From Ginglymostoma cirratum (Eukaryota): a stretch of DNA of 64,000 nucleotides. The DNA lies in contig JAHRHZ010000099.1 of assembly GCA_024137785.1 (NCBI GenBank), positions 1,131,262 to 1,195,261 on the forward strand. The letters run 5' to 3'. Shown here piece after piece: positions 1,145-62,595 of this stretch. Position 1 is the first letter of the stretch; the number at the start of each line of letters is the position of its first letter. The notes beneath the pieces are model-generated. The model saw only the letters and a program-made list of their open reading frames with translations. It ran no database searches and had not been told where the DNA came from. The translations under genes were made by a program, and so were the position numbers.

Positions 1145-2062
1145 ATAGAGACAGCAAGAACTGCAGATCCCGGAGTTTAGAGATAACACAGTGTGGAGCT
1201 GGAGAAGCACAACAGGCCAGGTAGCATCAAAGGAGCAGGAAAGTTGACGTTTCATACAACATTTGTTTTAATGCTCTTTCTGACTTTTTTTTTCTGATTG
1301 CTTGGTGCTGTCAATATAATTGAGTCTGAACATTAGAAGACCCCAGGGCAATCCTGGAGTGTTGGCACTTGGCAACCCCAGTTGTTGACATTTCAGGTCA
1401 TGACCTTTCTTCAGAAATGGGGAGGGTGAAGGGAGCTCGGAAATAAATAGAGAGGAGAGGTGGGGCTGGGGAGGGTGGGGGGGAGGGCTATGGGGGAGTG
1501 TAGGTGGGGGGGGGGGGGTTTGGGTCTGGGGGTGGGGGGGGGGGGGGTGGATAGGTGGGAGAGAAGATGGACATGTTGTGTCAGGTCAAAGAGGCTGGAA
1601 TGAGAGGGTGGGTTGGTTATGGGATGACGCCAGGGGTGGGGGGTGTTTAAAACTGGTTAATTCCATTTTTAGGCCATCGGGCTGTAGGCTCCCAAAGCGT
1701 AAAATGAGGTTCTACTCCTCCAGTTTGTGGGTGGTGTCATTGTAACACTGGAGGCGGCCCAGATGGACATGTCACCTAGGGAGAGGGACAGTTAAAATGG
1801 TTCGCAACTGGAAGGTGTTGTCATTTGTCGCATACAGAGCGCAGATGCTCTACAAAACAGTCTCCCCACTACTCCCTACCTGCACTCACCTATCATCATC
1901 CCACCTACGTTCCCCAGCCCCACCCCTCCTCTCTCTATTTATTTCTGAGCTCCCTTCCCCTCCCCATTTCTGAAGAAGGGTTCCGAAGCGAAACGTCAAT
2001 TTTCCTGCACCTCTGGTACTGCCTGGCCTGCTGTGTTCCTCCAGCTGCACTCTGTGTTATCA
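1145..2062. mobile_element. Older Penelope-like insertion with inverted ends in PPIL2 intron 4
   Basis: The same terminal repeat in both orientations, G-rich tracts, and a degenerate KLEE..LILRFGSLQPDGL tail on the minus strand at about 1660-1750. Confidence 0.7.
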
Positions 2063-3323
2063 GTAATGCACAGTTGCTTCTGTGACTGATATACCAATAG
2101 TTGCAAATAGTTGCAGAAGGTGAAGACAAAATTGAAAGGGATTATTACAGGCAAGTAATAATAATCTATAATAAATGCTCACTTGTCCACCATCTTAGAT
2201 AGATTTAACTGTTTAAATAAAACGTTTACACTTTCTGACTGCCTCTTCCATTCATTTACTATAGCACAGACCATAAAATATGCCAAAAACCTGAAACAGA
2301 AAATGCTGTACCTCCTCAGGTAGATGGTGAGTTCAAACTTCAATGCTTCTGTGATGCTGGTAAAACTATTACTGATAACACCTGATCACCACACAAGCAA
2401 ATATCAAAATTACACCAGTCCCAGACAGTAAAACCTGGCAGCGGGTTTTACATGTCAGCACTAACTTAGACAGTAGTAGTTCACTGTTGGCTAGCTCTGA
2501 AGATGTTTCATGAGAAACATTAACCTAACTTTCTCTTCAGAACCTACCCAACCTGCTGCATACTTCAAACGGTTACAGTTTTTACTTCTGATTTCCAACA
2601 ATTACTTCTTTATTAATTCTCTAACTTAAATGATGCACCAATACTACCATGATCAATGAGGTTAGGAAAGCATGCAAGATTTTCAAAATACTCTGATTAA
2701 ACACAAAACAATCGGGATTCTCACCTCAAGAAAGTAGCTGCTTACACATAAATAACTATAACTCCCATCACAACAACTCATGGTCCTTTAGTCATTTTAA
2801 CAGAAAAGATTTAAACATGAGTGATTTAAGATAGAAAATCCTTGTTTAAATGAATTAGCTTCTCAAAACAGTGTTATGCTGAATTAAGGATTGGTAGGCA
2901 GGTGAATGCAAATACAATGTACAATGGTCAATTGTTTCTGTCTGAGGGTCCATTCAACAACCATGTCTCATTGTCCAAAGAGACACCTAGCACCTCTGTG
3001 TGATTTCAGTCAGAGCTGAGAGAAGCACTTCTAAATACCAGAACCTAAATACCAAGGCGAACACAAGCATAGCAGTCTCAAAAGGGAGCAATGCACTGAC
3101 TAGATTGATAAGACAGGAAATGGAGACAGTGCTAAGTTTAGTTAGAACATCTTCCAAAGTGGACTAATGATGAGATTTCTTTATTCTTCAATTATTGTAC
3201 AAACAAAAGTCACAACCTAGTCTGGCAACAACCTTTCCACATTGCGGCACTTTTCTCCCATACTCAAACTGAAATGCAACCTTAAAGCACTGTGCTAAGT
3301 ACAAACAAGGCTTTTATACTCAC

Positions 3324-21029: not shown

Positions 21030-21243
21030 TTCTCATGACCTTACACGAGTCCCGCTGCCCCAGGATACTGGCTCAAACTAACTCTCCAGATGGTCTCCCT
21101 TCAAACACGGTAGATCATTCTTCATTCAGAGAAACGCTTTTTCGCCATTGTGCCTCTCACAGCAGCGATTGGCTCCTGAGTGTGGGAAACGCAGAGAAAC
21201 CCGGGCTCACGCTCACTTCCCTGCCCTCTTGGAGCTATAAATA
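21030..21243 (+). promoter_or_regulatory. HES5-type promoter cassette, copy A
   Basis: TTCTCATG 21030, CAGATG 21087, CATTGT, GATTGG (reverse CCAAT), TGTGGGAA 21181-88 + 15 bp + GGCTCACG 21204-11, TATAAATA 21236-43. Confidence 0.85.
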
Positions 21244-21993
21244 CAGGAGATGTTGATCAGAAACGCAGCAAACAGCAGAGACCGCGTCTTAGTTCACTAC
21301 CAGCTTCAAGAATGCGTCGACTTATTTACAAAACCATACCAATTGCAAGACGAGAAAACATCTCAGCTAAGGTGGGGTTACATTGACCAGAGATCGAGAT
21401 AGGCGCGAATTGTCTGATAGTAAATCCGTCTTTCATTTGCTAAAACGTTTCCTCGCTATTTTTTTCAGCTGTTAAAAGCAGCACTGCAGAGATTGCACTG
21501 GCTAAATTCAGAAGTTTAGATGTCACTGCGTTGAAAAGGAAAGATTACTACCCGAAACGGAATCGGTAACAAGTCTCGGGTAAGGCATCGAATTCCTCAC
21601 ACGCTGTAGACTGCAGATGATGTCAATAATTTTTATTTTGCTTGCCTAATCAACGTTCTGTAACGTACAGTTTTATCTCCGTGTGTCTTAGTTCGTGTTC
21701 CCCCACTGATTGGACACCAGAACAATCGCAGACCCGCTGTCAACTCGAAACACTGAGATGCAAATTAAGAAGAAAATCCCCAGCCGATTGAACCGAGGTT
21801 CAGATCTGTATTTCTCGGCTTGTCAGGCCCGGCCAAGCAAAACTTCTCGGCCCAGCACCGCTGAAACACCTGGACAACATTTTATATGACTCAGGAAGTG
21901 AGAGTTGCACGGTAGAGATACTGAAGGTTTATTCTCCGGTGTTAGACAGTATTCCACAATGGAAGTACCATTGTAAATACCTTCACATTGAAG
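21236..21993 (+). pseudogene. HES5-derived locus A (pseudogene or lncRNA): ATG 21312, exon 1 ends 21371, exon 2 21469-21579, exon 3 from 21692
   Basis: Same promoter and three-exon layout with about 100 bp GT-AG introns as the coding gene. Spliced frame MRRLIYKTIPIARRENISAK-LLKAALQRLHWLNSEV* stops at 21517-19. No WRPW found. 3' region aligns with the HES5 3'UTR. Confidence 0.75.
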
Positions 21994-24249
21994 CAGTTGG
22001 ATGCTTTTTTAGCGTCTAGTCCTCAATCGAGCGACGTCATAGTCCACGACCCGTTTTCGACAATCTTCCCTTAATAATCTCTCTGGTATTGTAATAGCTG
22101 TGGAATTATGCAGCAGAAACCCCCTGTTGAAGTGTGACAGGAAACAGAGAGTAGTTTATTCCGATGAACAGTTTGTGTCTTTTGTAGAAGTCTAGATTCA
22201 TTCACGGAGCACTTTATTCGGATAAGTATGAAGTAGAGAGTTTCTGGACCCCCTGACGTTTCGATTCCTCTCAGCGTCATGAAGGTTCATTGTAAAGATT
22301 GCAGTTCTACGTGAAGTCGCTGTAATCATACCGCTGTGGTATTGAAGGGTTAATAAGAATATTGTATTAAGTGCAGAAAAGCGACTTCAGATTGAAAGAG
22401 GTGGACAGTTTGTGAGGGCTATTTTTCATCCTCCTGTAACATCTCAATAGGTGACCGTTGCTGGCGGAATTGTTGAACTACTAGGGGGCGAGGTCTCGCG
22501 GAATTGATGTGCAGTGCCTGAAGCGAGTCGGAGATGGAAAGTCAACTAACCCTTTTATTAGTCTGGGAAAGTTTTACACAATAACACGTCTGTGTAAATG
22601 ATAAAGCTCCTTATTATAAAATAGATATTGTAAAACCTAAGACCGCAAAGTATTAGAACGGGGGTTATAAAATTACTTTGTGGAGGTGACTGTTGCCCTG
22701 TATCAGGGACGATGTTGTTGAAGCCGAGCGGTTCTTCTTTGTAAAAAAAACTAATAGTAGGTATTTGGAGCTCTTAAAGCTTCCAACCTGTTCAACATTC
22801 TGCGAATGACCCGAAAGGTATAAAATTTTATTGAAAACTTGTTAAAGTACACTCAACATGAACAAGAATAAAGTTAGGCGTACTATTTCGGGATGCGGAT
22901 TGTAGAGCAAGAGAACATAGGTTAAAAACTGATATAAAGACTGATCAGCTCTTGGATGGGCTTGAATTGGAGATGAGGGGGCTCAGTGGGAGAAGAAGTG
23001 ATAGGGGAATGTGAATCACTTAAATAGTTCTGGATGGACGAGCTCAGAGCAGCTGCTTCGGTTTTCTCGTCGGTATCTATTTTGTGATGGTGGTTAACTG
23101 AAAGGACTTAAAAGTTAAGCTAATGATGAATGATCTACATTCAGTGACATTGGGAAATTGTGATTTACAGCTCGACACTGCATTGTTGCTGTATCCTAGA
23201 AAATACATTTCAGACTACAGCATATGTAAATATGCTGGACATTAATACAAACTTCCAATAAAGTTATTTTAAGCTACTGCTGCATGGCGTGGTTTGTATG
23301 CATGATGCGTCGATTTACTGAGTACACTGCATTGTATTCGCGTTCATTCTGTGTACCCTCCCTTGGAAAAATATGTTGTGTATCGCTTTAGAATTCAATG
23401 GTATTTTTAAAATTGATTACAGAAGAATAGCATTTTTTTTCTGGTGTAGTTCGGCTCACACGCCCGTCCCGCGACTAAACGTGCAATTTGAACATTAATA
23501 ATATCGCGAACTGTTGAAAATCGATGGCAGTATATCATATTTAGCTAAAATAATAAACCGTCGATATTCACATGGGTTTAATTCTATTCTTTCATCACAT
23601 CCATATTGTGGCTTCAGCAAAGCATTGGAAGCCAGGCCCCTGCAGTGTCATTCTGAAATGGACGGTGCATGTATTACCCTCCTAAAATATACAGAGAGGG
23701 GCAAGGCAGGCTTCTGGGGACCCTAGCTCCCTCTGTTATTGGCACCATTACGTCCAATGTGTTGCCCTGATTGAATGTGGGAATTGCAGTGTCCTAATAT
23801 AGAAAGTAAATGAAAGCAAGCACCCATGATCGACTCCTTTCAGCTTTCCAGAGGGAGAAGAAGCTGTACAATTAAGCCTCAACCCCAAAGGGCTTGGAAA
23901 TAAAACATTTTGACATTTCCCAATGAAAGAGTTAAGTAGCCCCCATCAAATCTGATCGCATGGCCATCATTTACATTGTCTCCTTTACATTCTGAGAAAA
24001 GGACACTCTATTTCAGGACACCGGGAAGCTCAGAAGAAATTTGAGGTTTTTGATCACAATTCCCCGAAGGTGGCAGGAGAGGATAGTTAAGAAGGCATGA
24101 GGGACATACCTTTATCAGTGGAGAATAGATTATGAGAGCAGGCGGTTATGTTGGAGCTGTACAGAACTTTGGTTACAGCAGGTGTTGTTTGCAGAGGCGG
24201 GTGGGTGGGATGCTGGGGATTTTGTGTATATCTTCTGCTGTTTGCAGAT

Positions 24250-31242: not shown

Positions 31243-31600
31243 TTCTCATGACCTTACACGAGCCCCGCTGGCGCGGGATTACTGGCTCACGCCGTATCTC
31301 CAGATGGTCCCCTTGAGACTCGGCTCCAAAGAAAAAGTCAAAACGCTGTGGCTAATTCTTCATTCAGGAAAGAGAGGTTTTGGGTCATTGTCCGTCCGAC
31401 AGCAGCGATTGGCTGCCCGAGTGTGGGAAACGCCAAGAAATTCAGACTCACACTCGCCATCTGATGGGGCTGCTGTGGGCTCAGAGGCAGAGACTATCCC
31501 AGGCCTGCCTTAGGTCCCACTGCACGCACCGGTCTCTCAAAGATGACTCTTAAGAGTGTTGCTGACTCGCGAAGAGGACTCCCAGAAATGGAAACGGAAA
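31243..31600 (+). pseudogene. HES5 relic B: promoter cassette plus degenerate exon 1 only
   Basis: TTCTCATG 31243, CAGATG 31301, GATTGG, TGTGGGAA 31422-29 + 15 bp + GACTCACA 31445-52; no TATA. ATG 31543 gives MTLKSVAD (compare MAPTSTAD). No exon 2 or 3 seen. Confidence 0.65.
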
Positions 31601-39374: not shown

Positions 39375-40216
39375 TTAACTTTTCCACTGAGATAACAAGG
39401 TGTAGAGCTGGATGAACACAGCAGGTCAAGCAGCATCAGAGGAGCAGGAAGGCTGATGTTTCAGCCCTAGATCCTTCTTCAGAATTTTTTTTTTCTGAAG
39501 AAGGGTCTAGGCCCAAAATTTCAGCCTTCCTGCTCCTCTGATGCTGCTTGGCCTGCTGTGTTCATCCNNNNNNNNNNNNNNNNNNNNNNNNNNNNNNNNN
39601 NNNNNNNNNNNNNNNNNNNNNNNNNNNNNNNNNNNNNNNNNNNNNNNNNNNNNNNNNNNNNNNNNNNNNNNNNNNNNNNNNNNNNNNNNNNNNNNNNNNN
39701 NNNNNNNNNNNNNNNNNNNNNNNNNNNNNNNNNNNNNNNNNNNNNNNNNNNNNNNNNNNNNNNNNNNNNNNNNNNNNNNNNNNNNNNNNNNNNNNNNNNN
39801 NNNNNNNNNNNNNNNNNNNNNNNNNNNNNNNNNNNNNNNNNNNNNNNNNNNNNNNNNNNNNNNNNNNNNNNNNNNNNNNNNNNNNNNNNNNNNNNNNNNN
39901 NNNNNNNNNNNNNNNNNNNNNNNNNNNNNNNNNNNNNNNNNNNNNNNNNNNNNNNNNNNNNNNNNNNCTGAGATAACAAGGTGTAGAGCTGGATGAACAC
40001 AGCAGGTCAAGCAGCATCAGAGGAGCAGGAAGGCTGATGTTTCAGCCCTAGATCCTTCTTCAGAATTTTTTTTTTCTGAAGAAGGGTCTAGGCCCAAAAT
40101 TTCAGCCTTCCTGCTCCTCTGATGCTGCTTGGCCTGCTGTGTTCATCCAGCTCTACACCTTGTTATCTCAGATTGTCCAGCATCTGCAGTCCCTACTGTC
40201 TCTTAACTTTTCCACT
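39375..40216. mobile_element. Palindromic Penelope-derived insert spanning an assembly gap
   Basis: Head-to-head terminal repeats; TSD ttaacttttccact at 39375-88 and 40203-16. Confidence 0.75.
39568..39967. other. Assembly gap (400 N)
   Basis: Run of N. Confidence 1.
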
Positions 40217-48108: not shown

Positions 48109-48345
48109 TTCTCATAACTCGGAACGTGACTAATTGCCCCCGGGTTTGCTCTGTCACACGGACTGTCCAGATGGTCCTCAGAGATTCCCACGCAAAAGCA
48201 ATGTCAAAGCCCATCATTAGTTTGGCATTTACAAGGCAACGATGCGGCTATTGTCCTTCTGAAAGCGTTCGTTGGCCAGAGAGTGTGGGAAACCTCATGA
48301 AACACCGACTCACGCTTTTTTCATGTAAATGCAGAGGTATAAATA
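48109..48345 (+). promoter_or_regulatory. Notch-responsive promoter of the coding HES5-like gene
   Basis: TTCTCATA 48109; CAGATG E-box 48168; RBPJ site TTCCCACG 48185; paired site TGTGGGAA (48284-91) + 15 bp + GACTCACG (48307-14); TATAAATA 48338-45. Confidence 0.85.
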
Positions 48346-48414: not shown

Positions 48415-48492
48415 ATGGCTCCGACCAGTACTGCCGACGTTATCAACCGGGAATTCTCGGAAGAAAAATTCACAGCCAAGCAGAAAAGCAAA
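48415..48492 (+). CDS. HES5: HES5-like gene exon 1, MAPTSTADVINREFSEEKFTAKQKSK
   Basis: ATG in aggcATGG context about 70 bp after TATAAATA; phase-0 donor gtgag at 48493; MAP- start typical of HES5. Confidence 0.9.
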
Positions 48493-48593
48493 GTGAGCAT
48501 AAAAGAATGCGGTGAATATAAACGTTGGCAACGAGGACTTTCAATGCTTACAGTCAGATATAAAATATCTTACTTAATCCGCTCTGTTTTCAG

Positions 48594-48771
48594 ATAATGA
48601 AGATCACAATAGAGAAAAGGCGCCGTGATCGGATAAACAGCAGCATCAACCAGCTGAAGGCTTTACTGGGAAGGGAATTTCAAACGGAGGAACCCAATAT
48701 GAAGCTGGAGAAAGCGGACATCCTGAAAATGACTGTGAATTACCTGAAGCACCACAGCCAACAGCTCAGAG
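48594..48771 (+). CDS. HES5: HES5-like gene exon 2, bHLH: IMKITIEKRRRDRINSSINQLKALLGREFQTEEPNMKLEKADILKMTVNYLKHHSQQLR
   Basis: ttttcag acceptor and gtaagg donor; EKxRRDRINSSI and KLEKADIL are HES5-type bHLH motifs. Confidence 0.95.
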
Positions 48772-48866
48772 GTAAGGCTCATGATCCCGAGCGTGGTTTG
48801 TTTTCCGCCCGTTCGGTTGGAACTAGTGTACGTGACACTGAGCCTGTGTTTTCCTCTATTTTGTAG

Positions 48867-49132
48867 CAAGCGGTCCGGCCAACACTCCGGAGCGTGACTA
48901 CAACGAAGGATACTCTCGATGTTTGCAAGAGGCTCTGCGCTTTTTCTCTGCCCAAGAAGACAAGACCGACATTCAGAAGAAGTTGGTGACCCGTTTCCAA
49001 AGAAGACAGCCACCGTGTCCGGCCAAGGCGACCGTGACTTATCCTGTATGTCTTCTGTCCTCTGCTCCCTGTCAGACCAGCGGCGAGCGGCCAGCTCAGT
49101 GTAGTCAGGCATCCCTGTGGAGACCCTGGTAA
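48867..49132 (+). CDS. HES5: HES5-like gene exon 3, Orange domain (DYNEGYSRCLQEALRFFS) and C-terminal WRPW
   Basis: ttgtag acceptor, phase 1 continuous with exon 2; ends LWRPW-TAA. Spliced CDS is 522 nt (173 aa). Confidence 0.95.
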
Positions 49133-49375
49133 AGCACCAAGAGTGTTGGATACTCTGCCCCGTTTGCAGTGGTGGTGAAGACGATGTAGGAGAATCATTC
49201 TCCAGTGTCAGCAGTAACTGTGGTAGAACCGGAACTGTAGTAAAGGTTGCTTCATATTGAAGAAAGCGTATTTCCCCAGGTTATGGGGCGCGTCATGTTA
49301 TAAAGGATGTCCTGATTTTGCGCTACCGATACGTTAGTCAGACTTCTCGTTTCGATAACTGTCATCAATGTAATT

Positions 49376-49381
49376 AATAAA
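49376..49381 (+). terminator. Probable polyadenylation signal of the HES5-like gene
   Basis: AATAAA about 245 nt after the stop, followed by a GT/T-rich tract near 49408-49425. Confidence 0.6.
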
Positions 49382-52300
49382 ACGTGGTCGCAGATCCTGA
49401 AAAGGGATCGTTTTGTTTTTTTTTCTTCATGGTGAAGAGATGCTGCAATTCTTGGAGGTCAATTGTACGAGGTTAGGCGGGCGGGTGCCTGACTGTTACC
49501 AGATTACTCATGAGTCAGTGACAACACCATTTCCTTCACCATATTCACACCCTTTTAACTCTTTGATACTCCCACGTGGATAGATTTCCCTACACTCTCT
49601 CACCAACGCCCTCTACAGGTCCCATACCCCTCCTATTTGCACTGCCTTTCATGTCTCCACTGTCATCAGGTCTAGGGTGGGCGCATATCGCGCCGCCCAA
49701 GTCCGACGTCCGTTAGACAGAGAATAGAGGCATGGCACGTCCCTAACCTGACTGCCCACATCTAGTTTGACCATCCTAAGTAATGCCACCCTCTCCGCAG
49801 TTAACCACCTCAAATTTCACAGCACTGTACTCTCCTAACTCTGTCCCAGAGGAATCAGTGCATGTCTGCCCCCTTTTCTGTCCTTAGCACCATCTTGGTG
49901 AATCCCATATCTGATCTCTATTCATCATAATTTCCGGCTATTGCTCAGTGACTAATACATACTTCCACGTCTATTCAATGAGGCCATTGGCATTCACTCA
50001 ACATAGCGACCATTCTGAAGTACGTTGAGACTTGATGATTCACAGCTTCTAATAGGCTCAACATCGGCAAAGCTGTACCTTTGGAAACTTTCCCCAGAGC
50101 CTTAGTGTCTCTGATACAGATTTCAGCAACTTCCCTAGTTTCTTGCTCAGGGTAAACTAAATGATAGGCGACCTTGGGATCTGTTAAATCTCTTGGTGAA
50201 ATTTTACCCACTATTTGGCTCATGAGGAAGATCGCCTTCTTACATCTCTGGAATACACTACGTCTTTGAATTCTCGTCCTTTGTACAAATTGAGAGCCCG
50301 CCTTTGTTTCCTGTAAATTACTCGGGGATTTGTTTTCATCTGTCTAAAGAGAGGGATACAAGTGCAAGTTCTTGCTTTGAAAATGTTCGGAAGTTGCTGT
50401 TAATTCAATTATAACTTGCAATGTCAGAATATATACCCCGCTTGAATGTACACGATGCCTTGTATTATATACATGCAACCGTGAATAAAACGTAGTCAAA
50501 ACTATACTAATATTGGCGAGTTATTTAAGTTATTTAGTTTACCTGAATTTTCGGAAATTTGCACACTATTGTTGGAGTACGTCGGCAAAACGAACTGAAT
50601 GACTGCTTGTAACATTGATTTAACTATCTCCCTTCCTCCTTTATCTGTGGAACTTTGTTCTATTCTTAAATCAAAGCAAAATACTGCAGATACTGGAAGT
50701 CTGAAACAAACTCTGAAGAAGATTCACGGGGAGCTCGAAACATTAACTTTTTTCTCTGCCCAGGTGCTGCCAGACCTGCTGAGTTTCTCCAGCACTTCTT
50801 GTTTTTGTTACAGTTTTTATACTGATATCTGGGATCAAAAATACAGCCTTCTCCTACTAATGGTATTACTAGATGTTTGAGAAGCCAGCACCCGTTTTTT
50901 TTTCAATAAAGGGGAATGAGCATTCAAATTAGTAAGCAATTGATAAAAGCAGATAGCAATCAAACCAAAGATTACTTCCATCCAGAAGGACAAGTTCCCC
51001 TCCGAGCCATCCACCATCCTGACTTGGTAATATCGCCGTTCCTTCACTTTCGCTGGTCGAAATGCTGTAATTCCCTCCCTCATGGCATCGTGGGTCAACC
51101 CACAGCACGTGGACTGCAGCAGTTCAAGAAGGCAGCTCACCTCTACCTTCTCAAGGGCAATTAGGGATGGGCAAGAAATGCTGGCCAGCCAGCGACGCCC
51201 ACCAATAACTTTTTTTTTAAGTAAGAGCGCAACGATTTGCAATAGTGGAAGGCTGCAACGATCTTTGAGAGCTTATTGGCTTATGTTAAATGAGTAAATG
51301 GAACTACGAATATGATTAAGTATGGATAAACAAGAAACTAGACGACATGGAACTAAAAATAAGATAATTTTAATATTGAACATATTTGTCCTTCAGATCA
51401 TTCAGTAACTCTGCAAGTTTCTAAATAACTAGCGTTTCCTTAACTTCCAACAATTTGATTTGTAATGCACTACTCCCTGATTTGGACGGACTACTGCACA
51501 GTGATCATTGACAACGTTCAATGCGTTTTGGTTATTAGGACAGAAGGAAAGCATTGCTGACGCAGACGGAAAATAATCGAGAATTTCAATTTAGCGAATC
51601 CAGTTTCTTGAATACGTGCATTACCTCTTCAAACCATTAGAGTTGAAAAACAAAGTGGCGCTAAATCTGTGTTCTTTGTTGATTGACAAAATTCCATGTT
51701 ACCTATGGTAGCCGTGCAACAAATATAGATGAATAATTCAGCTTTATTTTATTCCGTGGTTTGTTCAATGAACATTGAATCATTTAACAGAAAATTATAA
51801 AGGAAACAGTATTTACCATATTAAATACTATGAAGTGAGTTGCTCAATTTAATCCCGGAGATGGACAAATTTCTTCACCCAGGGAGTGGTGAGCTTGCGG
51901 AATTCTCTGCCACAGAATGCGGAATTCTCTGCCACAGAAGGCGATTGGGGCGAAGTATTGAATATTTTCAAAGAGTTACTTATAGCTCTTCGGGTTAAAG
52001 GGGTCAAAGGGTATGGAAAAACAATGGGAGCAGGGTACTGAGTTGCTTGATCAGCCATGATAATATTGCATGATGGAGCAGACATGAAGGGCCAAATGGT
52101 CTACTCCTGTTCCTATTTTTAATGTTTCAATGGCATGGGAATGGATCCTTTGAAATTCTACAAAAGTGACTCTTTGAGGATAGAGTTTAATCAAGTGCCA
52201 ATTTGTTTTATAATTGGCAAATTGAGAATTTAGAATGATAGAAATTTATGGCGCAGGAAGACACCATTCAGCATATTGCGTTTGTGCAGAGAGCTAAAAA

Positions 52301-59460: not shown

Positions 59461-60065
59461 CCCCTCTTCACTCTAAGATAACAAGGTGTGGAGCTGGATG
59501 AACGCAGCAGGCCAAGCAGCATCNNNNNNNNNNNNNNNNNNNNNNNNNNNNNNNNNNNNNNNNNNNNNNNNNNNNNNNNNNNNNNNNNNNNNNNNNNNNN
59601 NNNNNNNNNNNNNNNNNNNNNNNNNNNNNNNNNNNNNNNNNNNNNNNNNNNNNNNNNNNNNNNNNNNNNNNNNNNNNNNNNNNNNNNNNNNNNNNNNNNN
59701 NNNNNNNNNNNNNNNNNNNNNNNNNNNNNNNNNNNNNNNNNNNNNNNNNNNNNNNNNNNNNNNNNNNNNNNNNNNNNNNNNNNNNNNNNNNNNNNNNNNN
59801 NNNNNNNNNNNNNNNNNNNNNNNNNNNNNNNNNNNNNNNNNNNNNNNNNNNNNNNNNNNNNNNNNNNNNNNNNNNNNNNNNNNNNNNNNNNNNNNNNNNN
59901 NNNNNNNNNNNNNNNNNNNNNNNTAGGCCCGAAACGTCAAACTTTCCTGCTCCTGTGATGCTGCTTGGCCTGCTGCGTTCATCCAGCTCCACACCTTGTT
60001 ATCTCGGATTCTCCAGCATCTGCAGTACCTACTATCTCTGATACAATTACCCCTCTTCACTCTAA
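59461..60065. mobile_element. Palindromic Penelope-derived insert spanning an assembly gap
   Basis: Inverted arms on either side of the Ns; TSD cccctcttcactctaa at 59461-76 and 60050-65. Confidence 0.75.
59524..59923. other. Assembly gap (400 N)
   Basis: Run of N. Confidence 1.
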
Positions 60066-61502
60066 CCTCAGGAAATTGGCTACTTCATCCTCTGCCCACC
60101 GTTTATAAGCAGCTGGGAGTCTGAAGTTACCGAGAGCATGTACAAAATATTATTGGGAAGAGGAACTTAATTCTGGGGAAATAGCATTTTAATGAGCGTG
60201 GTGTGCAAATGAACGCAAAATGACCTCCCCACACTTGCCTGAACTGAATAGGGGGTCGTTTGATCCCGCGGTTAGGAAGCTGATTTTTTGATCTCCGGCT
60301 TTATTGAAATTCCCTCCCGCGTTGGAGCCCCCTGCCTTGAGAGTAGCACAAGACCCGCTTTAGGTTTAAACCATTGAGATTACTGCGCGCTGGGTATCAC
60401 ACACTGGTCGGAAAGTTAGGGCCAGGGCATCCTGGGAGAACACGTCCTCACCACTCCACCTTAACTCCAGGAGGAAATCTCCCTCACAGATGAACGACAC
60501 TCGTTCAAGGAAGGTGGACAATGCGGCGTTTTTGCGGTTCTGTTCGACACATTAGAACTTTTAACGTACTCGTGCAAAATGCGTGTGAGACGAAGAGAAA
60601 TCATTACTGTCGCATGGGGAACCTAGAACCACTACCTTAAACGTCAATACCTTCTTCATTGTTCATTTCCTTCTGGAGTGGTCCATGTTTTTCATGCAGT
60701 GTGCACTCCAGAAGCACTTTATTTACAGAATCGTTATTTATTAAGCTTTTCACGAAAGTACAAATAATCCTGATCAAGAAGACAGATCAACTTTCCATCC
60801 ATGCCACAACGTAAGAGGGAGGAACCTGGAGAAAGCTCTCCTACCAAACTCATGGGTATTAGTCCAGAAACTGGACATTTCACTGCGATTATGTTGATAT
60901 AGCATTGAGAAGCTCAACAAGTATTGTTAAAACATGGGGCTTGTATATGACAAAGCACAGATAAGTGACTGCTTAATGCTTTTATTAAACTACCCAACTC
61001 TCCAACATGAAAAAATCCAACTATAATTATTAGAGGGTTTCTGTTAACCCTTTTATAACCACCGCCATGTAATCATGGGTGTTACTTAGAACTAAACTTG
61101 AAGATCGGCTCTCATAAATGGTAAGAGAAAGCGAAACTCCTCCGACCAATTTATAAAGGTGATCATGAGGACATTTTTGTTTAAAGTATCTGGAGTACCA
61201 GGTCTGTTTGTTCTCACATTGCAAAATACATTACCCAGTTTACTGAGTATCCCTTTGCTAACAAAATACAAACTTGTACGTTCTGAGACAGATTCCTTTC
61301 AATCTCTGACGCACTTTTAACAAGAATCGAAATGGAGAAATTTCTCCTACGCACTTTTTGTCGTTATTTCAACTACTGTAGACATTCACTGTGAATATAC
61401 AGAGACATTATTAAGTATTGTACAAATGTTGTAATACACGGCTCCCATATGATATCATACAGGTAAAGATCAGAAATATTCTTTAAATAAACTGACAATC
61501 TC

Positions 61503-62389
61503 CTTCAATGTGAAGGTTTTAATCAGACTGCTTCCACTTTGGAATACTGTTTTTCGCCAGAGTACATCTCTGGTTTTGCCTGTCTAATTTATCGTTAAGG
61601 TCTTTCCCTCAGTCTGTAAAATGTCCATTCCTCATTTTGTACCTCTGTCAGGTTGTCCCGACATGCGGTGCTGAATACTAGGCCTAAACGAATGGAAAAT
61701 ACGTAGGCCCTGTCTGGTCTTCCATATCGGTGAAGTCATTTCATAAATTCTGATTGGAAATCATCTCCCGCTGACATTAAGAGTCGAACCCGCTGGATTC
61801 TCGATTCTGAATCACACGGCTAAGAGCTAAAACAAAAACAACGAAAACATGAGTGATACACTCTGATTGGGAGGATGAAATGATTGTAAAGGTACTCTTT
61901 ACAAATCTTGTATGTAAGGCACTCAATGCCTTACCATGAATCCAGCTGTTGATTTTAATCGTGTCAGGCCGTTCTCTCTCATTCCCAGCCTGCTACTGCG
62001 CAAAGGCTCGAATCGGTATTTGTTTCTGAATTTGTTTCAAGCGCAATGCTGCAAACCAGAGGTACAACAAGCTCCTGTCATCCTCTGCCTCTTCTCTCTG
62101 TCGCCGAGAACTATAGAAAAAGAGCGAACATCTTTGTGATTCAGCAAAAGTCCGAGATTTCTAAATGACGCAATGTAAATACCATAATAATTAAAAACGT
62201 AGAATACTATATTAATCGAACATATTCTAAATATAATCATACCTTGTGTTGTTAGTTTAGAGACTCCATTTCCAAATTCTCTCTCCAAACGACGGTGATA
62301 TTCTTACAGGCACTCAGTGATCTCTGTGCAGTGGAACCTAAAAGCTCCCGTCTGCTGCTGCTCTGACTTTAACATCTCCTGCATTTATA
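61503..62389 (-). pseudogene. HES5-derived locus C (pseudogene or lncRNA): exon 1 ends 62243, exon 2 62110-61935, exon 3 from 61826
   Basis: Donors gtatg and gtaagg, acceptors tttctatag and tgttttag. Exon 2 is 176 bp (178 in the coding gene) with frameshifted bHLH traces (gag aag agg cag agg). The first ATG gives only MESLN*. Shares the 3' hairpins. Confidence 0.75.
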
Positions 62390-62595
62390 GCTCCGAGAGG
62401 ACAGGGAGAAGCGTGAGTCCGGGTTTCTTTGCGTTTCCCACACTCAGCAGCCAATCGCTGCTGTCAGAGGCACAATGGCTAAAGTGCTCTTTCTGAATGA
62501 GGAATTATCCACGCTGACGTTCCTTTGTGCTGAATGCAAGGGACCATCTGGAGAGCTGGTATTAGTCAATAATCCCGGGCCGCAGATTATGAGAA
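62383..62595 (-). promoter_or_regulatory. HES5-type promoter cassette, copy C
   Basis: On the minus strand: TTCTCATA (62588-95), CAGATG (62545-50), GATTGG, TGTGGGAA (62435-42) + 15 bp + GACTCACG (62412-19), TATAAAT (62383-89). Confidence 0.85.

Follow-up and report, generated by a model that had tools for sequence, protein, structure and literature searches.

A short hairpin of sequence CUUCA-YAU-UGAAG, called E2 here, recurs in the 3' part of the coding hes5 gene and of two non-coding hes5 paralogues in the 64 kb stretch of shark DNA that we analysed as a whole (hereafter the window). E2 is real and selected, and is probably a short-stem variant of the constitutive decay element (CDE) class. 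Judged from sequence, its reading as a CDE-like element that would act at the RNA level is well supported, given its 3'UTR position, its YAU loop, the A-U pair that closes this loop, the restriction of changes to the loop in two related species and the sense-strand excess of YRN triloops in other vertebrate hes5 UTRs. We further consider it probable that the hairpin serves as a CDE-like decay signal in RNA, most likely via Roquin (or Regnase) and with help from neighbouring hairpins. It would be a CDE-class element in a gene family that is without a Roquin link in the literature searched, and it is accompanied by non-coding hes5 paralogues that keep the element.

The shark hes5 cluster

The window spans a shark hes5 cluster with a single coding gene, B, and a pair of paralogues, A and C, that are non-coding but have retained the Notch promoter. 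The named proteins closest to the cluster are from shark, and the B protein is 90-97% identical to the named shark HES5 P0022. The loci, including a second coding paralogue (F) located beyond the window, are as follows.

48415..49132 (+): coding hes5 gene B, exons 48415-48492, 48594-48771 and 48867-49132; 173 aa, WRPW end
From 48285 (+): promoter of B, paired CSL-type sites from this position and a TATA box at 48338
49376 (+): poly(A) signal AATAAA of B
21110..21245 (+): promoter of A, paired CSL-type sites from 21182, TATA box at 21236; 87% identity to the promoter of C
21266..22400 (+): predicted non-coding transcript A, exon 1 to 21371, exon 2 21469-21579, exon 3 from 21692; transcript predicted from sequence, both ends approximate
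62380..62512 (-): promoter of C, paired CSL-type sites from 62441, TATA box at 62389
60970..62360 (-): non-coding transcript model C, exon 1 to 62243, exon 2 62110-61935, exon 3 from 61826
60986 (-): poly(A) signal AATAAA of C; the ends of the model are approximate
31253-31455 (+): promoter remnant D, similar to the promoters of A and C, no TATA box in the alignment
From 30258 (-): further paired CSL-like site, E
L025:8934-9860 (-): second coding hes5 gene, F, about 40 kb past the end of the window

Both A and C can be recognised as hes5-derived loci by their hes5-type promoters, by a 3' block homologous to coding hes5 and by GT-AG introns in the three-exon layout of coding hes5. The 3' block of A matches F at an E value of 2.5e-4 and that of C at 2.5e-5, and since these blocks align to the 3'UTR of F, A and C are likely descendants of F-type duplicates. 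In good agreement with their original description as non-coding copies, no HES reading frame was found in either locus, and hidden coding capacity was rejected: the best tblastn match of 25 HES5 proteins has an E value of 0.37 (in C), the best HMM sequence E value is 0.84 and the longest ORF is 43 aa in A, where it lacks HES similarity, and likewise 43 aa in C. The two loci, taken with their promoters (A, 21110-22400(+); C, 60970-62512(-)), are candidate sources of long non-coding RNAs induced by Notch.

When the genome was searched with P0060, only B and F were recovered, the other hes genes being outside the reach of this search. As in the jawed-vertebrate hes5 clusters described in the main text of PMC8320183, where elephant shark has three clustered coding copies, the hes5 copies stand in tandem; unlike those clusters, the present one has, next to its two coding copies, two non-coding copies of the spliced type whose promoters are intact, as well as one promoter remnant. 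The terms 'UTR' and 'non-coding' are absent from the main text of PMC8320183. Downstream of D and E, no YRN hairpin of at least 5 bp was found in about 3 kb. The window also contains two 400-N gaps, one of them flanked by identical 181-bp stretches (39387-39567 and 39968-40148) that are possibly an assembly artefact, the other at 59524-59923.

The hairpins and their recurrence

The original prediction had placed CTTCA-YAT-TGAAG at three sites, and upon re-reading all three proved to be exact matches (21981-21993(+), 49250-49262(+) and 61503-61515(-)), with a constant stem and a loop that changes only between C and U across A (CAT), B (TAT) and C (CAT). These hairpins and their neighbours are listed below; the closing-pair probabilities were computed with 15-80 nt flanks, using a program and a measure that differ from those of PMC6294493.

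21981..21993 (+): E2 in A, CTTCA-CAT-TGAAG, 5 bp, predicted closing-pair probability 0.31-0.60
49250..49262 (+): E2 in the 3'UTR of B, CTTCA-TAT-TGAAG, 5 bp, predicted closing-pair probability 0.11-0.62
61502..61516 (-): E2 in C, CCTTCA-CAT-TGAAGG, 6 bp, predicted closing-pair probability 0.66
21952..21964 (+): E1 in A, TTCCA-CAA-TGGAA, identical in the coding paralogue F
61532..61544 (-): E1 in C, TTCCA-AAG-TGGAA, loop not YRN
61557..61573 (-): E0 in C, CCAGAG-ATGTA-CTCTGG, aligned to CTAGGGT-TGT-ACCCTGG of F
61384..61433 (-): two further 5-bp YRN triloops in C, TACAA-CAT-TTGTA and ATTCA-CAG-TGAAT

Three parts of the original description need adjustment. The stem, put at 5 bp, has this length in A and B but extends to 6 bp in C. 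The hairpin, assigned to all three full-length HES5-family loci, is present in A, B and C but not in the fourth locus, the coding hes5 gene F, which is without it at the aligned position. Finally, the flanks, reported as diverged, are so between B and A or C but not between A and C, which have a 56-nt block in common (75% identity, background 57%). Within this block E1 (TTCCA-NNN-TGGAA) lies 29 nt upstream of E2; E0 occurs in F and C, E1 in A, C and F, and E2 in A, B and C, being altered in F. The UTR of F has the hairpins AGGGT-TGT-ACCCT, TTCCA-CAA-TGGAA and two copies of GCATTG-TAR-CAATGC, plus CTTCA-GGGTA-TGAAG, and in the alignment its E0 differs from that of C by one double change (G-C to A-U). 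In prediction, E1 of A is mostly unfolded (0.01-0.09). A resemblance of AATGGAAG in E1 to the fly proneural box was dropped, the match being short and broken in C. We also observed a 14-nt word, AACTGTCATYAATG, that is common to B (about 49357-49370(+)) and F (on L025, just 3' of E1); its length is reached in 4/60 shuffles.

A position outside the mature transcripts would have spoken against an RNA element, and in both B and C the hairpin falls within the 3' portion of the processed transcript. In B it lies between the stop codon and the poly(A) signal, 117 nt past the stop (49132) and ahead of the AATAAA at 49376, and in C it is located inside a contig of another species (X1) that appears spliced. 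The X1 sequences are presumably RNA, and the X1 contig on B is without intron 2; it covers 48865-49448, across the hairpin site, with the base comparison reaching 49229. On C, an X1 contig matches 60999-61628 and picks up again at 62265; the two parts are separated by 367 letters (a comparison of length only), against 396 expected if spliced and 636 if unspliced, and by this measure the C counterpart in X1 appears to be spliced. The raw RNA runs X8 and X9 have almost no depth on B or C and are uninformative either way, and no RNA record was listed for B. The hairpin CTTCA-TGG-TGAAG at 49425-49437(+), with the same stem and another YRN loop, lies 44 nt beyond the AATAAA of B; as the X1 contig extends to 49448, a longer B UTR might include this copy.

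The predicted folding of E2 in A, B and C exceeds the 5% used as a CDE criterion. In wider context, predicted closure falls to only 0.11-0.14 in B, and is 0.01-0.17 and 0.06-0.36 for the related hairpins of L003 and L038 described below; in the minimum-energy folds (61-76 nt context) the hairpin is absent in A, B and L003 and, among A, B and C, is present only in C.

The 13-mer pattern is rare, with 473 exact matches in the 4.36 Gb genome (1 per 9.2 Mb), and the window holds three where 0.007 are expected (Poisson P for at least three, 6e-8, for a pattern picked after the fact and with A and C being relatives). The hairpin word is the sole 13-mer of the B UTR that is present in both A and C with at most one mismatch, and any such three-way word was given by 0/100 shuffled B UTRs. 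A search of the window against Rfam at gathering score returned 0 matches. It could be argued that the three copies are a neutral relic of tandem-duplicate ancestry plus chance, given that all the loci are paralogues, that F lost the hairpin, that the pattern was picked post hoc and that the 13-nt match is pairwise within chance (reached by 4/60 shuffles for B-A and 8/60 for B-C). We consider such a relic very unlikely, and it is already weakened by the three-way match, by the recurrence of the stem in a bird-like HES5 gene, by the family-wide YRN enrichment and by the uneven conservation of A and C: their exons and introns are 57-65% identical, against a shuffle background of 55-60%, whereas the promoter (87%) and the 56-nt hairpin block (75%) stand out. 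That A and C kept the promoter and the hairpin block suggests that selection still acts on their RNA or on its turnover.

Related hairpins are found in other hes genes. The bird-like HES5 gene L038 has CCTTCA-TAG-TGAAGG 161 nt past its stop, where the non-shark UTR sequence (4,786 nt) would be expected to contain 0.0013 occurrences of CTTCA-YRN-TGAAG; the shark gene L003, which we take to be hes6-like, has CTTCA-CGC-TGAAG at 2062-2074(+), 111 nt past its stop, with 0.003 expected in the set of 11,154 nt to which it belongs; and the teleost gene L039 has CATCA-CAT-TGATG, a double change, 104 nt past its stop. L003 also possesses TATCT-CAT-AGATA and a paired CSL-type promoter, and L004, likewise hes6-like and adjoining L003 on another contig, has CCTTC-AGT-GAAGG 507 nt past its stop.

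Inside E0-E2 of C, the only changes listed in the related species are 61510 in X1, which turns the E2 loop from CAU to UAU, and 61537 in X5, the third loop base of E1; E2 is unchanged in X5, and for E0 no change is listed in either. The pieces diverge from C by 12% (X1) and 7% (X5), and by hand arithmetic the chance of 34 unchanged E0-E2 stem bases is about 0.013 (X1) and 0.08 (X5), that for the 12 stem bases of E2 alone about 0.2 and 0.4, respectively.

The stem CUUCA/UGAAG is identical in five of the six aligned copies (A, B, C, L003 and L038), and covariation is not significant, with a double change in one of five pairs that 79/500 shuffles reach; the varied stems of teleosts are not alignable homologues. 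Given this fixed stem and the non-significant covariation, a sequence-reading factor stays the main rival to Roquin or Regnase: the RNA hairpin could be read by another factor that also senses the stem CUUCA/UGAAG, or could act on translation or localisation and not on decay. Identity of the stem across A, B, C, L003 and L038 is beyond the needs of shape reading, the stems are short for Roquin, and the loops UAG and CGC, as well as AAG in E1 of C, are weaker or non-CDE. Set against this, teleost hes5 UTRs put many different and unrelated 6-8 bp stems under CAU, UGU and UAU loops, as expected of a YRY shape reader, and we regard a factor other than Roquin or Regnase as a minority possibility.

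YRN triloops in hes5 UTRs

The UTRs of vertebrate hes5 genes are enriched in YRN triloop hairpins. In eight such UTRs (2 shark, 6 other; 5,909 nt) we counted 29 YRN triloops with a stem of at least 5 bp, against 2.3 in shuffles, and 15 with at least 6 bp, against 0.6; neither count was reached in any of 200 shuffles. The excess, 12-fold and on the sense strand, persists without the shark UTRs (24 vs 1.9 in shuffles), the non-shark sample being 6 UTRs from perhaps three organisms and the counts being inflated by internal duplications in L041 and L043. The non-shark UTRs were taken from metagenome records that contain DNA or RNA of the host: among the best 80 of 179 loci, nine were vertebrate hes5-like, with bird or teleost proteins as the nearest named relatives. 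Left out of the count were L036 and L040 (near-duplicates of L035 and L041), the first 110 nt of L037, L042 (no UTR) and the CTTCA-TGG-TGAAG hairpin beyond the AATAAA of B.

No YRN excess was seen in 11 other shark Orange-domain genes (6 vs 3.5; 25/200 shuffles reach), these being the 11 loci of an Orange-domain search of the shark genome that included neither B nor F. Nor was there an excess in 33 invertebrate HES UTRs (8 vs 11.2; 181/200 shuffles reach), which were kept from a set of 71 after removal of near-duplicates, of loci with no WRPW stop and of those below 150 nt. The invertebrate and other-gene UTR sets end at a fixed length, whereas the hes5 set ends at the poly(A) signal. Hairpins with 4-, 5- and 6-base loops are also enriched in hes5 UTRs, about 3-fold.

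The strand and the position of the YRN hairpins bear on whether E2 is instead a palindromic DNA site, to which a transcription factor would bind as a dimer within an enhancer lying downstream at each hes5 locus. The hairpin word has fixed arms and forms a perfect palindrome with a spacer; loci that no longer code for protein have kept it along with their promoter, and the window has 11 copies of TTCA-N3-TGAA where 2.9 are expected. Yet the loop reads YAU in the direction of transcription in plus-strand and minus-strand loci alike, the arms vary freely in teleosts, and with A and C added the YRN hairpins number 34 on the sense strand and 3 on the antisense strand (P 1e-7), while the flanking DNA (190 kb) has 60 sense vs 47. 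Moreover, the 5,145 nt that precede the stops and the 4,073 nt that follow the poly(A) signals contain only 2 YRN hairpins each. Together, loop class, strand bias and position favour an RNA element over a DNA palindrome, which we judge to be quite improbable.

The word could, lastly, be a linear site for a microRNA or a protein, its symmetry incidental, in the manner of the K, GY and Brd boxes, which are found in the UTRs of fly E(spl) genes. A conserved 20-bp element of the chick Hes5-1 3'UTR has indeed been interpreted by its authors as K-box-like (main text of PMC3201213). For the shark word, the variable bases fall in mid-word, pairing is kept by the double changes in L039 and E0, and one loop class sits over many unrelated stems; all of this argues against a linear site, which strikes us as highly improbable.

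Relation to Roquin and Regnase targets

Roquin and Regnase are known mainly from immune control, and NRARP is a Notch target. According to the excerpts of Braun et al. 2018 used here (PMC6294493), the relaxed consensus of Roquin CDEs is a 6-8 bp stem with a YRN loop, YAU being the best; CDEs with 5-bp stems are less active, tandem sites repress more, and the excerpts report no preference of Roquin for stem sequence. The UCP3 and CSF3 CDEs have YAU loops with an A-U closing pair, and the NRARP CDE, TCATAA-CAT-TTATGA, is exactly conserved in the table of that paper (PMC6294493). The same table gives two predicted CDEs for human HES5 (GGGAAG-CGC-CTTCCC and GACTTC-TGG-GAAGTC), neither conserved in mammals, and its rows in these excerpts contain no CDE for HES1, 2, 4, 6 or 7 (PMC6294493). 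Loss of Roquin in mice entails perinatal death, and non-immune roles have been suggested (PMC6294493). Regnase-1 and -3 cleave YRY stem-loops that overlap CDEs (excerpts of PMC13732794).

Compared with the CDEs of UCP3, CSF3, TM2D3 and NRARP as described in these excerpts (PMC6294493), E2 is similarly a 3'UTR hairpin with a YAU triloop, an A-U closing pair, a Watson-Crick stem and tandem neighbours; it is unlike them in the 5-bp stems of A and B, in a stem that is fixed from shark to a bird-like gene and in having copies in non-coding paralogues. The loops conform to YRN throughout (CAU, UAU and CAU, with UAU in the X1 variant). A stem of 6-8 bp is found in C (6 bp) but not in A or B (5 bp); it is also found in L038 and in 13 YRN hairpins of non-shark hes5 UTRs. 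Because an extra A-U pair closes the loop (UCA-YAU-UGA), the canonical TNF-type core UCYRYGA is not present, while a YRY triloop, as in Regnase-1 stem-loops, and UUC and GAA arms are in common with the canonical TNF-type CDE and Regnase stem-loops described in the excerpts of PMC13732794. As Regnase-1 acts on translated mRNA (same excerpts), in a UPF1-dependent manner, it is a better fit for B than for A or C, in which no ORF exceeds 43 aa. The shark genome contains two ROQ_II genes. Of the original CDE-like reading, then, the RNA-level element stands on the grounds given at the outset, whereas strict membership in the class is opposed by the 5-bp stems in A and B, by a stem sequence more fixed than a shape reader would require and by the lack of this copy in F.

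As a CDE-like decay signal, E2 would shorten the life of hes5-family transcripts after a Notch pulse. By analogy with known CDE biology, the ROQ domain would bind the YAU loop, E0 and E1 would add to the weak 5-bp E2 site, and CCR4-NOT would then take off the poly(A) tail. A and C would have arisen from F-type hes5 duplicates, with the protein lost and the promoter and hairpin block kept.

An experimental parallel is the chick Hes5-1 3'UTR, which lowers reporter output, with a contribution from the conserved 20-bp element carrying the motif cTATGATa (PMC3201213). The likeness is that of a hes5 3'UTR that reduces output and of a printed motif with C-UAU-G, the top of a possible CDE; the difference is that the chick motif is taken as a K-box-like site, the word 'hairpin' being absent from the main text (PMC3201213). 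Since the motif contains C-UAU-G, it may be a triloop hairpin. No trans-acting factor is named for the chick UTR in the literature examined (main text of PMC3201213), neither Roquin nor stem-loop occurs in the excerpted text of a review on the 3'UTRs of clock genes (PMC9840655), and Roquin is not mentioned in PMC11838918. In the literature searched, which largely excludes subscription papers, we found no link between Roquin and hes5, and among the titles and abstract openings listed none describes a hes5 hairpin.

A joint reading, which we put forward as doubtful, is that Roquin/Regnase stem-loop decay sets hes5 mRNA lifetime in jawed vertebrates, that the chick 20-bp element is such a hairpin and that the shark non-coding paralogues are decoys or timers. 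Dynamic Notch read-outs need fast loss of hes5/her4-type mRNAs. If the reading is true, an immune decay pathway would also time the Notch response in neural progenitors, and there would be Notch-induced non-coding hes5 paralogues in which the hairpin array is the only conserved transcribed part. A defined hairpin of 13-15 nt with a known candidate reader makes the hes5 turnover factor directly testable and, if this is borne out, Roquin and Regnase would gain a developmental target family. Finally, A and C would present a natural case in which the protein is lost while the switch-on and switch-off elements are kept.
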